From an uncultured delta proteobacterium (GTDB taxonomy: Bacteria; Desulfobacterota; Binatia; UBA9968), in assembly GCA_963755715.1 (NCBI GenBank), contig CAVWLW010000065.1:5766-69765 (forward strand): a DNA stretch of 64,000 nucleotides. The letters are read 5' to 3'. The notes beneath the pieces are model-generated. The model was given only the letters and a program-made list of their open reading frames with translations, was not told where the DNA came from and searched no databases. Each line of letters starts with the position of its first letter. The first letter of the stretch is position 1. Positions 35,148-57,563 of the stretch are shown here, piece after piece. The position numbers were made by a program, and so were the translations under genes.

Positions 35148-35177
35148 TACGACGAACGGGCAAGCGGCTGCAGGACA
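35148..35177 (-). promoter_or_regulatory. ECF-type promoter candidate A1 (TGTCCT-N17-CGTCGTA)
   Basis: Minus-strand read: GTGTCCTGCAGCCGCTTGCCCGTTCGTCGTATTG. The -10 lies 45 nt upstream of the YCII ATG at 35103, heading the YCII-remnant-sigma-1 operon. Confidence 0.6.
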
Positions 35178-35208
35178 CTCTATTAATTTTTTTTGGAACT
35201 TTTACCGA

Positions 35209-35784
35209 TCATTTGCCGAGCTTCATCGCTTTGGGGCGCGCCAGGAGACGATCCACGTAAGCCTCCAGCTTGGGCCGGTCCGGCGGTTTGCCCCACATTC
35301 GCTTCCAAATAAACATAGAGCCGATCATGATGTCAGCAGCGGTGAACCAGTCGCCGAACAGGTAAGGTCCGTTGCCCAGTTCGCTTTCGATCACGTCCTT
35401 GGCCGCTTCGAACTCCGTCCAGCCGCGTTGGGGCAACGTTTGTACATTCAACAAAGCGTCGCCCATGGCGGGCTCGAGTTGCGCGGTCGAGTAGACCATC
35501 AACGAGAGGTAGCGGCCGCGTTCCGGCGCGTCGATTTTGGGCGCGAGGTTGGCTTGCGAAAACTTGTCGCCGAGATACAGGCAGATCGCCGTGCCCTCGA
35601 AGATCTTCGAGTCGCCATCGACAAGCGCAGGTAGCTTGCCAGCCGGGTTGATCTTAAGAAACTCCGGCGTCTTGTGTTCACGCTTTGTGAAGTCGATGGG
35701 AACGATCTCATATTCTGCGCCGCACTCGTCAAGCATCCACTTGGCGATTACAGCCCGGCTCTGAGGATTGTAGTAAAGCTTCAT
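35209..35784 (-). CDS. Glutathione S-transferase
   Basis: ATG 35784 (MKLYYNPQSRA). PEFLKINPAGKLPALVDGD thioredoxin-like N-domain plus helical C-domain. The ORF track extends to 35859. Confidence 0.85.
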   Translation of the reverse strand: MKLYYNPQSRAVIAKWMLDECGAEYEIVPIDFTKREHKTPEFLKINPAGKLPALVDGDSKIFEGTAICLYLGDKFSQANLAPKIDAPERGRYLSLMVYSTAQLEPAMGDALLNVQTLPQRGWTEFEAAKDVIESELGNGPYLFGDWFTAADIMIGSMFIWKRMWGKPPDRPKLEAYVDRLLARPKAMKLGK

Positions 35785-35998
35785 CGCAGCACCTCTTAAT
35801 TCAAGAACAAGAGTGGGATGGAAAGAGTTCAGTCTGTGAAAGAAGCGCGCGAAAATCAACCCATCACTGAAAACTTAATCTTGCGAAAAGTCTTTCGGTG
35901 AATTGCGAGTCTCCGGTATGTGGTTTCTCGAGCAACGCCGGCTTATCGCTGTGTGTTCTGAAAGCCGGAGAAGGAGAGATGGCTGCTTCTTCGCGCGC

Positions 35999-36776
35999 TT
36001 AGTTCTTTAGCCTATACCCCGTCTTGAAAATCCAGCCCACTATCGCCAGGCAGATCACGAAAAATCCCAGCGTCATCGCCAGAGCTAACTGCCACGCTCA
36101 CGTCGGACGATTCGTAGAAGCTCCAGCGGAATCCGCTGATGAGATAGACGACCGGATTGAACAGCGCGACCGTGCGCCACCCCGGCGGCAGCATATCAAT
36201 CGAATAAAAGGCGCCCCCTAAAAAGGTCAGCGGCGTCACGATCAGCATGGGGATGAACTGCAACTGCTCGAAGCCTTTCGCCCAAATGCCGATGATGAAG
36301 CCGAACAAGCTGAAAGTCGTCGCCGTTAGCACCAGGAATGCGATCATCCAGAATGGATGCAGAATTTTGATCGGCACGAACAGTGACGCCGTGGCCAGAA
36401 TGATCAGTCCCAGAGTGATCGACTTGGTCGCCGCGGCGCCGACGTAGGCGAGGACGATTTCTAGATACGACACGGGCGCGGACAAGAGTTCGTAGATCGT
36501 GCCGGTGAACTTCGGGAAATGGATGCCGAATGAGGCATTGAAAATGCTTTGGGTGAACAATGACAGCATGACCAGCCCCGGCACGATGAAGGCGCCGTAG
36601 ACGACGCCATCGACCTCGGTCATGCGCGAGCCGATCGCGGCGCCGAAGACCACGAAATAAAGCGAGGTTGTGATCACGGGCGTCACGAGACTCTGCCAGA
36701 GCGTGCGTAGGGCACGCGCCATCTCGAATTTGTAAATCGCCCAGACGCCGTACCTGTTGAATGCCAACGAGCTCAT
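35999..36776 (-). pseudogene. ABC-2 type exporter permease, C-terminal frame disruption
   Basis: 254-aa ORF is ABC-2-like to ...[14 protein letters not shown]. The +1 frame restores a final TM helix [29 protein letters not shown] with stop at 35999-36001. Shift near 36088-36095. Confidence 0.75.
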
Positions 36777-37699
36777 TGACGATCGCTCACCAAGCTCACG
36801 AAAATGTCCTCGAGCGAGCTCTGACGAGTGTTCAGGTCCTTGAACCCGATTCCCAGTTCGCTCAACCGCTCGAGCAACGTTGAAATGCCCTTGCGCTCAT
36901 CACCGGAGTCAAACGTGTACTCCAGCTCATGCCCGGCGGCTTTCAATGCCAGGCGCCAGTCACTCAACTCGAGAGGAATCGAGGCCAGCGGCTTCAGCAG
37001 ACTTAGCGTAAGCTGTTTTTTGCCGAGCTTTTTCATGAGCTCGATTTTCTCCTCGACCACGATCATCTCGCCTTTGTGAATCACTCCGATCCGGTCCGCC
37101 ATTTCCTCGGCTTCGTCGATATAGTGAGTGGTCAAGATAATCGTCACGCCGCTTTCGCGCAGCCGCCGCACGAGCGCCCACATGTCACGGCGCAGCTCCA
37201 CGTCCACTCCCGCCGTCGGCTCGTCCAGAAAGAGGATCTCCGGTTCGTGTGCAAGCGCTTTGGCGATCAGCACGCGCCGCTTCATGCCGCCCGACAGCGT
37301 CATGATTTTACTGTCGCGCTTTTCCCAGAGCGAAAGATCGCGCAGCACTTTTTCGATAAGCGCCGGATTCGGCGCGCGCCCGAACAGTCCGCGGCTGAAG
37401 GTCACCGTCGCCCGTACGGTCTCGAACGTATCGGTGGTGAGCTCCTGAGGCACCAGGCCGATCTTCGCGCGCGCGGCGCGATATTCACGCGCGATGTCGT
37501 GACCGTCGACGAGCACAACTCCCGCACTCGGCGTGACGATGCCGCAAACGATATTGATCAAGGTCGTCTTGCCCGCGCCGTTGGGGCCTAACAGAGCGAA
37601 GATTTCACCCTTGCGGATTTCGAGGTCGATGCGCTTTAGCGCATGAAAGCCCGAAGCATAGGTCTTGGTCAGATGCGAAATCGAGATGACCGGCGGCAT
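36773..37699 (-). CDS. ABC transporter ATP-binding protein (ABC-2 exporter partner)
   Basis: ATG 37699 ([14 protein letters not shown]). Walker [10 protein letters not shown], signature LSGGMKRR, Walker [17 protein letters not shown] overlap with the permease. Confidence 0.92.
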
Positions 37700-38043
37700 C
37701 GCGCGGTTTTGGCGAGATTGCAAAACGGCTCGCGCGCCGGACGCGCCTGCCGTTTGTTCGTGCCTTCCAGCACCACCCAGTGGTAACATTATAGACAACG
37801 CAATGACTCCCGACCGAAAGCTTCATCGCATCACCTCTCATAGAGAACAGGAAATGCAATTTATATTAGTCTGTGGGAGAAACTTGCCTAAATCAACTCC
37901 AGCGCTGATCTTCGTTTGTCTTTACAGCTTCAACGCGCAGCTTTATCATCGCTAACTGATACGCAGCATTAGAACAAAAGCCGATCCGTATCTTTAAAAT
38001 ATTTAACCTTGCGCTTTCTAAAAGCGAGAAAAGGAGATCCACG

Positions 38044-56072: not shown

Positions 56073-56599
56073 AACATGTTGCCTCTCATTTAAGGTTAGC
56101 GTGGGGTAGCGACTCAGAGCGGAGAATCGCTTTGGCATTTTCCGCCCATCCGATCGCACTCTAAACTCTGCCAATTTTCTCGCAATCGGTGCCAAAATCA
56201 ATGAGGGAAAGTAAATTGGCGGCGAGGCGAGTCCCATGAAACGATAGAGGTCTTATCGAAGACAAACCAAACGGATTCGCAGCGCAACGATTTGAACGGC
56301 TGGAACGAATTAAACGACTGTTGTTTCAGCGCGCAACCAGCAACGTGGGATCTGCGCAGTGACCCGCCGATCCTCGGGTTCGGCGGCGCTTTCGAACACG
56401 ACTACCGATTTCCGCGCTCGGTGAGTAGATATTTATGAAAGTTAAAGCGCGGCGGCTTCCAGTCGTCGCCGCGAGTCAGGAAAGAGCCGGTTTGCGTTTC
56501 GCTGACGACCGAGGTCTTCGCAAACACGGAAACATGGTTGCCCTAGTAACCGGCAGAATCGCGCGATCTCCTGGTTCGATCCCGGCTCCTGGCCGCCGA

Positions 56600-57229
56600 T
56601 CACGGCTTGATGGCGGCGAAAGCTTCGGCGATGCGCGTCGGCGCATTTGGGCGGGCGTACATCCGCTTCATGTAGGTGAGCAGCTGCGGGCAATCGTCGA
56701 GCAACTGGTCCTCGTTGGCCCAGTCGAGCGTGTATGCCATCACAAAATCGGCGACCGTCACATTGTCGCCCACGATGAACTGCCGCCGTTGCATGTGCTC
56801 CTCTAACACAGATGCCATGGCCTTGAACTCCTGGCTGGCGGGGACCACGTCCGCCGGCAAGCGCTGCTCTTCCGGATACAGCATCGTGTTGCGAGCGATG
56901 CGCCAGAGCGGCTGCTCCAACTCCGTCGCCGCGAACAGAAGCCAGCGGTTGACCTGCGCCCGCTCCTTAAGGTCGGTGGGGATCAGGCCTTTGTTGGAAT
57001 ACTTGTCGGCCAAGTAGAGCACGATGGCCACAGACTCGGTCAACACGAGGTCGCCGTCGACGAGCACTGGAATTTTGCCTGCGGGATTGATCTTGAGAAA
57101 CTCGGGGCGCTGGTGCTCGCCGGCTAAGAGGTTGACGCGAATGGGTTCGAAATCCACGCCCAGCTCCTGGAGTGTCCAGCGCACGCGGATCGATCGGGTA
57201 GGGCCAAACTCGTATAGTTTCATCTTCAT
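56600..57229 (-). CDS. Glutathione S-transferase
   Basis: 209 aa. PEFLKINPAGKIPVLVDGDLVLTESVAIVLYLADKY. Confidence 0.85.
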   Translation of the reverse strand: MKMKLYEFGPTRSIRVRWTLQELGVDFEPIRVNLLAGEHQRPEFLKINPAGKIPVLVDGDLVLTESVAIVLYLADKYSNKGLIPTDLKERAQVNRWLLFAATELEQPLWRIARNTMLYPEEQRLPADVVPASQEFKAMASVLEEHMQRRQFIVGDNVTVADFVMAYTLDWANEDQLLDDCPQLLTYMKRMYARPNAPTRIAEAFAAIKP

Positions 57230-57297
57230 CGATACCTCCTTCTTCGGCCGCGCTTTGCGGCCGATCGCGATGTTTGAACCTAAGTTCTCGGCGAGCG

Positions 57298-57497
57298 CTA
57301 CGGCTTCAAGTCGATCGCGGCTTTGAAGCTGCCGTCCATGTAGAAGGGGACCGAGCTACGCTCATGTGTGATCGTCCACTTCCCGTCGATTTTACGGAAG
57401 CCGAGGGTCTCGCGAAACCACAAGTCCACGTTCTGTCCGTCTAGTCGTTGTTGCCATCAGCCACGTCATCTTCGATGGGTTTACTGGTTGCCGTCAT
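57298..57497 (-). pseudogene. Internally deleted remnant of an NTF2-like (SnoaL/DUF4440) gene
   Basis: MTATSKPIEDDVADGNND*, then in another frame DGQNVDLWFRETLGFRKIDGKWTITHERSSVPFYMDGSFKAAIDLKP*, a typical NTF2-like C-terminus. Keeps aggag RBS, ATG and promoter A4. Confidence 0.6.
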
Positions 57498-57533
57498 TTT
57501 TTCTCCTCTCTAGCTTTTGTCTCGTTTCATTAA

Positions 57534-57563
57534 TACGACGAACGAGAAAATACCCTCGGGACA
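57534..57563 (-). promoter_or_regulatory. ECF-type promoter candidate A4 (TGTCCC-N17-CGTCGTA)
   Basis: Minus-strand read: GATGTCCCGAGGGTATTTTCTCGTTCGTCGTATTAATGAAAC. The -10 lies 37 nt upstream of ATG 57497. The remnant and GST lie downstream. Confidence 0.6.

Follow-up and report, generated by a model that had tools for sequence, protein, structure and literature searches.

The DNA analysed here, called the window, is a stretch of 64,000 nt from an uncultured delta proteobacterium of the class Binatia (assembly GCA_963755715.1, contig CAVWLW010000065.1, forward-strand positions 5,766 to 69,765). A minus-strand island of 24 kb, from about 33.1 to 57.6 kb, holds two genes for sigma factors of the extracytoplasmic function (ECF) type, sigma-1 and sigma-2, together with all of the short two-part sites studied here. 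These sites are quite probably -35/-10 promoters read by RNA polymerase with the ECF42-group sigma factors encoded in the same island. Two classes of sites were found. Judged by the sigma genes that they accompany, class A is most likely recognised by sigma-1 (33100-34431, minus strand) and class B most likely by sigma-2 (54798-56072, minus strand). An earlier note on this DNA had described six copies of one ECF-type promoter motif; it left open which of the two sigma factors serves them, and the second promoter class beside sigma-2 was overlooked there.

Two classes of sites and two sigma factors in one island

The pattern TGTCS-N18-CRTCGTA has exactly six matches in the window, all on the minus strand and at the positions that had been reported, against 0.03 expected from dinucleotide shuffles. 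The strict form, TGTCC-N18-CGTCGTA, has five matches against 0.01 expected from such shuffles, and thus the claim of five exact, gene-directed copies far above chance was borne out. In 128 kb of two-strand sequence, the bare core TGTC-N19-CGTC is matched only by the five class A sites. All six sites are intergenic and directed at a minus-strand start codon 36 to 144 nt downstream; the upstream placement given before was correct, and the distances of 37 to 145 nt were not exact. Five of the six sites form class A, with the form TGTCCYG..TTCGTCGTA, in which TGTCCYG is followed by a variable spacer of 11 nt and a conserved GCTCGTT-CGTCGTA block. The sixth (47535-47564) is a chimera of the two classes and not a sixth copy of one motif.

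We trained position weight matrices (PWMs) solely on related loci of other organisms and then applied them to the window. With these independent PWMs, class A sites in the window reached 33-41 bits (five sites) and class B sites 31-33 bits (three sites). The next best matches in the window scored 12 bits (class A) and 16.6 bits (class B), the maxima in shuffled windows were 10.8 and 15.7 bits, and no additional class A or class B site above shuffle level was found elsewhere in the window. The class A promoter at 35148-35177 (minus strand; TGTCCTG-N-TTCGTCGTA; 36-39 bits with the independent PWM) lies 44 nt before an ATG and precedes YCII-1, a PhnB-like remnant and sigma-1. An orthologous promoter with variable spacer is kept in loci L001-L004 and L026 of the related set, and this placement would allow autoregulation of sigma-1. 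The promoter at 44259-44288 (minus strand; PWM 41 bits) lies 67 nt before the ATG at 44191 and heads a VOC fragment followed by a VOC-GFA-VOC-VOC-MFS string. That at 46758-46787 (minus strand; PWM 33-36 bits) precedes a DUF899 gene and an open reading frame (ORF) at 45161-45691; its 144-nt leader showed no significant structure on folding. The promoter at 48827-48856 (minus strand; PWM 30-34 bits) precedes two DoxX_2 genes with a 129-nt leader. The fifth, at 57534-57563 (minus strand; PWM 40-41 bits), stands before an NTF2-like pseudogene and a GST gene, and sigma-2 follows on that strand after another 527 nt. The promoters at 44259-44288 and 57534-57563 are identical over TTCGTCGTATTAATGAAAC. 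Gene remnants come first behind two of the five class A promoters, namely a 58-aa VOC N-terminal fragment (44015-44191) and a frameshifted NTF2/SnoaL-like gene (57298-57497).

A repeat search of the window found no flanking homology between the sites beyond a promoter block of about 49 nt, which is common to three of them. A repeat or duplication origin was ruled out on this ground. Because no repeat longer than about 49 nt joins them, the sites are not copies of a promoter-plus-gene segment, an explanation that the earlier note had also thought unlikely.

A relaxed search of the window gave three further minus-strand sites, TGTCGA-N16/17-CGACTA, compared to 0.01 expected. These class B sites have the form TGTCGATT..(A/T)(A/T)CGACTA; all three lie just downstream of sigma-2, each 37-71 nt before a YCII gene. 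The site at 54738-54766 (minus strand; TGTCGATT-N-GAACGACTA; PWM 33-38 bits) is located 32 nt past the sigma-2 stop codon, before two YCII genes, and the same placement just after the sigma-2 stop was found in 34 of 70 orthologous loci. The site at 53730-53758 (minus strand; PWM 32-36 bits) precedes a YCII-GyrI-like fusion gene and another YCII gene. The third, at 52241-52268 (minus strand; PWM 31 bits), has a spacer one base shorter and precedes YCII, PhnB-like, 3-dmu-9_3-mt and BNR genes, the real ATG being at 52203.

The chimeric site at 47535-47564 (minus strand), before a PhnB-like VOC gene, has a -35 of the class B type (TGTCGATTTC), and its -10 (TTCATCGTA) is of the class A type with a single G-to-A change. 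Its -35 half scored 12.5 with the class B matrix and -9.7 with class A; its -10 half scored 11.1 with class A and -4.9 with class B. Because the -35 of one class is joined to the -10 of the other, its full-length score is about 12 bits under either PWM, which is the noise level. The site is unlikely to be a chance match, since only 0.03 matches are expected for the relaxed pattern and it lies before the PhnB-like gene inside the island. Possibly it is a promoter that is weak, in decay or the product of recombination.

The ECF42 group is very widespread. Its members are described as having a C-terminal extension of about 200 aa with tetratricopeptide repeats (TPR), a YCII-related gene as neighbour, few and local targets, and no anti-sigma factor (PMC8999054, PMC7826278, PMC6180224, PMC7776599). 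Sigma-1 has 443 aa and sigma-2, counted from the in-frame ATG at 56072, has 424 aa; the two are 40% identical. Both contain Sigma70_r2 and Sigma70_r4_2 and lack regions 1 and 3, as is typical of an ECF core. The generic sigma70-ECF model TIGR02937 is the sole NCBIfam model above cutoff, passed by sigma-1, and the PDB sequence matches of the window sigmas are to ECF sigmas only. Pfam assigned DUF6596 to both proteins (E-values 5e-36 and 1e-37) and gave sub-threshold TPR_2 and TPR_12 matches in sigma-2. In the AlphaFold model of sigma-1, residues 194-442 form the paired helices of a TPR-like extension; from about residue 230 on, the pLDDT averaged over blocks is mostly 78-96. Foldseek matched the C-terminal half best to the TPR proteins Tom70, CTPR and PTPIP51, with weak E-values of 1e-3 or higher, and the N-terminal half to ECF sigmas, also with weak E-values. 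By these domain matches and the model, both sigmas carry a TPR-like C-terminal extension of the ECF42 kind. No SnoaL domain was found in either protein by Pfam, and the extension in the sigma-1 model is all-helical. The window sigmas thus lack the fused SnoaL/NTF2-like extension of the ECF41 group, which speaks against membership of that group.

The surroundings of the two genes are also of the ECF42 kind. Sigma-1 is immediately preceded by one YCII gene, and sigma-2 is immediately followed by five. Pfam scans of all flanking ORFs found no anti-sigma domain such as zf-HC2 or RskA, although a novel anti-sigma could escape these scans, and relaxed tblastn found no third sigma gene in the window. 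With respect to the ECF42 promoter type TGTCG(A/G) / CG(A/T)C, class B matches as TGTCGA/CGAC, and class A has C at -35 position 5. The consensus TGTCGA / CGxC, which the earlier note gave as predicted for ECF42 targets, fits class B better than class A. The best sigma-1 homologues are named Candidatus Binatia bacterium, and the closest related locus (L001, 98% identity) is on a contig of a Binatia metagenome-assembled genome (MAG). Taken together, the sequences support the view that the window sigmas have ECF42 architecture and context.

Partition of the two classes in related loci

We compared 160 loci around orthologues of the two sigma genes. The sigma-1 set consisted of 80 genome loci (orthologues 62-98% identical) from Binatia, Verrucomicrobiota, Acidobacteriota, Nitrospirota and others, and the sigma-2 set of 80 metagenome loci (65-79% identical). 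The core TGTCC-N18-CGTC was found 102 times in the 80 sigma-1 loci (about 11 in shuffles), 97 times on the strand of the sigma gene, and only 5 times in the 80 sigma-2 loci. Conversely, the sigma-2 loci contain TGTCG-N18-CGAC 74 times, in 61 cases on the strand of the sigma gene, and the sigma-1 loci contain it 4 times. The consensus of class A consists of A-tracts, TGTCCTGAA, N, GCTCGTTCGTCGTA, N4 and TGAA; that of class B reads TGTCGATTTCGG, N, CCCGA(A/T)CGACTA, N, GTGAA. The A-tracts upstream of the class A -35 are phased and resemble an UP element.

Both classes occur in one genome, each beside its matching paralogue, in the window and in a Verrucomicrobiia MAG (locus L059). The order in L059 (9407-13347) is class A, YCII, sigma-1, sigma-2, class B, YCII. 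Its sigma paralogues stand in tandem, 57 nt apart, and its class B site starts 19 nt past the stop of the sigma-2 ORF (12463). Because the classes coexist in these two genomes, the taxonomic makeup of the locus sets does not explain the partition. The sigma-1 and sigma-2 clades also differ by fixed residues, N81/L82 versus F/K in sigma2 and A170/K173/T176 versus T/Q/V in the region aligned to Pfam Sigma70_r4_2. From the alignments we infer that these sigma2 and sigma4-region residues are candidate specificity determinants.

Promoters have been assigned to the ECF42 factor RpoE10 of S. meliloti upstream of SMb20475, SMc01149 and SMc01151; all are TGTCGG-N17-CGTC (PMC6180224, Table 1), and SMc01151 did not respond to RpoE10 overexpression (PMC6180224). 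For SMc01149, transcription starts at nucleotide 9 counted after CGTC (PMC6180224), and the corresponding nucleotide after CG(T/A)C in the window is the G of a conserved TGAA. In both classes (window, L002-L160) this TGAA lies 8-11 nt after the -10 core, coincident with the S. meliloti start position; its conservation in class A is 77-83% per position. Strong conservation reaches the predicted +1 to +3. The ECF-type promoter reading of the earlier note is therefore supported by the two ECF42-type sigma genes in the window, by the register shared with the mapped RpoE10 promoters and by the conservation of the sites beside sigma-1 orthologues.

The first ORFs behind the sites in the related loci were then classified. 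For class A (n=75) these were YCII 33, VOC 24, SnoaL 4, SRPBCC 3, PhnB-like 3, DUF899 2, BNR 2 and GFA 1; for class B (n=62), YCII 51, DoxX_2 3, SnoaL 2, PhnB 1, DUF899 1 and VOC 1. YCII is thus the commonest first gene for both classes. Targets reported for RpoE10 likewise include a YCII gene and glyoxalase-like genes (PMC6180224). The target families in the related loci are the same as those in the window, so that the genes described before as unrelated and stress-type form a conserved ECF42 target repertoire; they do belong to non-homologous families, but they are not unconnected, since the same families recur behind the sites in related loci.

Proposed mechanism and competing explanations

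We propose that a signal would act through the TPR extensions, perhaps together with YCII proteins, as has been suggested for ECF42 factors. The extension is reported to be needed for the activity of ECF42 factors. Sigma-1 and sigma-2 would be activated and each would transcribe its own promoter class. With the mapped SMc01149 start as a guide, transcription at the window sites is predicted to begin 9 nt past CG(T/A)C, at the G of the conserved TGAA. This places the predicted starts at about 35142, 44253, 46752, 48821 and 57528 for class A and at about 54731, 53723 and 52234 for class B. The units under sigma-1 would be the operon of YCII-1 and sigma-1 itself plus four more for small putative detoxification proteins (VOC/glyoxalase, GFA, DUF899, DoxX, GST, MFS), and sigma-2 would drive five YCII genes and the PhnB-like and BNR genes.

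Several observations weigh against so clean a division. The class B core with a spacer one base shorter splits less cleanly, with 13 matches in sigma-1 loci and 26 in sigma-2 loci, and the loose core patterns behind all of these counts take in some background matches. A site of its own class lies within 1 kb upstream of the sigma gene in only 20 of 74 sigma-1 loci and 15 of 50 sigma-2 loci, and hence autoregulation is not universal. The site at 47535-47564 fits neither promoter class. S. meliloti RpoE10 pairs a G-type -35 with a CGTC -10, which argues that the half-site types are not intrinsically incompatible within ECF42. The assignment of each sigma to a class is drawn from co-occurrence, and some cross-recognition between the classes in the window is conceivable.

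A single regulon, in which both ECF42 paralogues, or one alone, read all nine sites, would turn the A/B difference into one of promoter strength or lineage drift. Both classes have TGTC, equal spacing, CGNC and the TGAA start region; RpoE10 promoters are of a mixed type, TGTCGG with CGTC; and a chimeric site does exist at 47564. We nevertheless consider one regulon unlikely, given the reciprocal partition between the 80 and 80 orthologue loci, the coexistence of both classes in the window and L059 genomes, each by its own paralogue, and the clade-fixed substitutions in sigma2 and sigma4. Moreover, no such -35/-10 chimera was found in the 160 related loci (1.66 Mb). A search of these loci for promoters of the S. 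meliloti type gave one match. The sites could also belong to a different ECF sigma encoded outside the window, the ECF42 linkage being coincidental. An ECF41-like factor comes to mind, whose promoter in S. meliloti (TGTCACA..CGTC) is superficially similar. This is very improbable, because in 160 loci from many taxa the sites adjoin an ECF42-type gene, on its strand and tracking its clade. In addition, the window has no other sigma gene, and the targets match the experimentally defined ECF42 targets (YCII, glyoxalase-like).

Readings without a promoter, in which the sites would be operators for a regulatory DNA-binding protein, parts of a dispersed repeat or coincidental matches, are the least credible of all, and we give them almost no weight. 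In their favour, sigma-70-like promoters and terminator-like sites are no more frequent in the region than expected by chance, so nothing else delimits transcription units. However, the halves are non-palindromic, with fixed spacing and a variable spacer, and are consistently directed at genes. Only 0.01-0.03 matches are expected in shuffles, repeats around the sites span no more than about 49 nt, and the register is that of the mapped ECF42 promoters.

Recognition of class A by sigma-1 and of class B by sigma-2 could be extended to an orthogonal sigma/promoter pair working in series, a tentative and rather doubtful scheme. Sigma-1 would transcribe sigma-2 by class A read-through, either from the promoter at 57563 in the window or from the YCII-sigma-1-sigma-2 operon in L059. 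Sigma-2 would induce a YCII battery whose products feed back on the TPR extensions. The chimeric site at 47564 would either integrate the two classes or have arisen from their recombination. In the window as in L059, sigma-2 is preceded by a class A promoter and by no class B site, and no terminator-like site was predicted in the 527-nt gap before sigma-2. On the other hand, class B is also missing upstream of sigma-2 in 35 of 50 loci, none of the sigma-2 loci has class A within the 1 kb before the gene, and the gap between GST and sigma-2 is long.

Genes of the island and comparison with known systems

The genes behind the promoters were assigned mainly with Pfam, and they are those listed in the earlier note, including both of its remnants: YCII-sigma-1, VOC-GFA-VOC, DUF899, DoxX_2, NTF2-like remnant-GST and PhnB-like VOC. 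The island has six YCII-domain genes, one of them fused to a GyrI-like domain. YCII-1 (34696-35103, minus strand), of the DGPF type (Pfam YCII, 7.6e-15), is the first gene of the sigma-1 operon. Between it and sigma-1, tblastn revealed an internally deleted 3-dmu-9_3-mt/PhnB-like remnant (34485-34682, minus strand) with 81-87% nucleotide identity to 50824-50935 and 51240-51315. This identity to the 3-dmu-9_3-mt gene at 50828-51301 points to recent duplication and decay inside the island.

The string behind the promoter at 44288 (40709-44191, minus strand; Pfam, translation) contains the VOC fragment (44015-44191, 58 aa), VOC (43576-43977), GFA (43155-43502), VOC (42751-43296, true start probably later), VOC (42062-42487) and MFS (40709-41926). 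A second copy of the 3' end of GFA is present beyond the next VOC gene (42705-42764 versus 43151-43209, 87-92% identity), which is another trace of local rearrangement in the island. Further minus-strand genes with Pfam matches are DUF899 (45984-46613; 1.1e-73), two DoxX_2 genes (48248-48697 and 47636-48013) and the PhnB-like VOC gene (47014-47424). The frameshifted NTF2/SnoaL-like remnant (57298-57497) and GST (56600-57229), both on the minus strand, were identified by sequence reading, Pfam and tblastn. Two GST paralogues, 34% identical, flank the island; the first (35209-35859, minus strand) lies shortly before the promoter of the sigma-1 operon, and the second is the gene at 56600-57229 behind the promoter at 57563.

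The putative class B regulon (49599-54697, minus strand; YCII genes by Pfam and tblastn) includes YCII genes at 54305-54697, 53764-54150, 52314-52670 and 51823-52203, the YCII-GyrI-like fusion (52780-53658), PhnB-like (51325-51735), 3-dmu-9_3-mt (50828-51301) and a BNR/sortilin-like gene (49599-50786). The fusion gene, behind a class B promoter, encodes a 292-aa protein in which a YCII domain is joined to a GyrI-like/Cass2 small-molecule-binding domain, and this could be a sign that YCII-type partners of ECF42 sense ligands. Between GST and sigma-2 lies the gap at 56073-56599 (minus strand, 527 nt), in which no ORF, Rfam hit, class A or B motif, YCII or other gene remnant was found (tblastn, PWM). 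Rfam gave no hit in the whole window, and folding of the 105-139-nt leaders gave no structured RNA (z-scores -1.4 to +1.2).

The island is a clear but ordinary ECF42 stress regulon, a kind of system already known. Its modest addition is that, as far as the sequences tell, ECF42 apparently includes two non-overlapping promoter specificities tied to two paralogue clades, with one chimeric site. It holds two ECF42 regulons, unusually dense and clearly delimited, from a phylum without cultured members (Binatota), and we found no report of ECF42 in Binatia in the literature. The conserved target families (VOC/glyoxalase, PhnB, GFA, GST, DUF899, DoxX) point to detoxification of electrophiles or xenobiotics. 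From the A/B partition over 160 loci, a small number of bases and sigma residues emerge as candidates for setting specificity within one ECF group, which would be useful for regulon prediction and for the design of orthogonal ECF switches.

Paralogous ECF pairs with diverged promoter specificity are known (Todor et al. 2020, PMC7776599). As in those pairs, a few -35/-10 bases differ between the two promoter classes and a few sigma4/sigma2 residues between the two sigmas; the apparent divergence in specificity in the window is read from co-occurrence. The ECF41 group (SigJ, S. meliloti RpoE9; TGTCACA..CGTC) resembles the window system in a -35 that starts with TGTC, a CGTC -10, a fused C-terminal domain that regulates the sigma factor and a small local regulon. 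However, the ECF41 extension is SnoaL/NTF2-like whereas that of the window sigmas is DUF6596/TPR, its -35 reads TGTCACA, and its neighbours are CMD, oxidoreductase or epimerase genes instead of YCII.

The closest likeness is to ECF42 and RpoE10. In both, a sigma2 and sigma4 core continues into a C-terminal extension of some 250 aa that contains DUF6596 and TPR-like helices, a YCII/DGPF gene is adjacent, and the neighbourhood holds no anti-sigma gene. The promoters share TGTC(G/C)N-N17-CG(T/A)C with a start site about 9 nt past the -10 (predicted in the window), and in both cases YCII/glyoxalase-like targets form a local regulon. Class A in the window departs from the RpoE10 promoters in the fifth base of the -35, a C where those have G, and in its long extended blocks (TGTCCTGAA; GCTCGTTCGTCGTA). 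The island also differs in having two diverged paralogues (40% identity) with two apparently non-overlapping promoter classes, and at least eight strong promoters are found in 24 kb of the window compared to the 2-3 transcription units reported for RpoE10.

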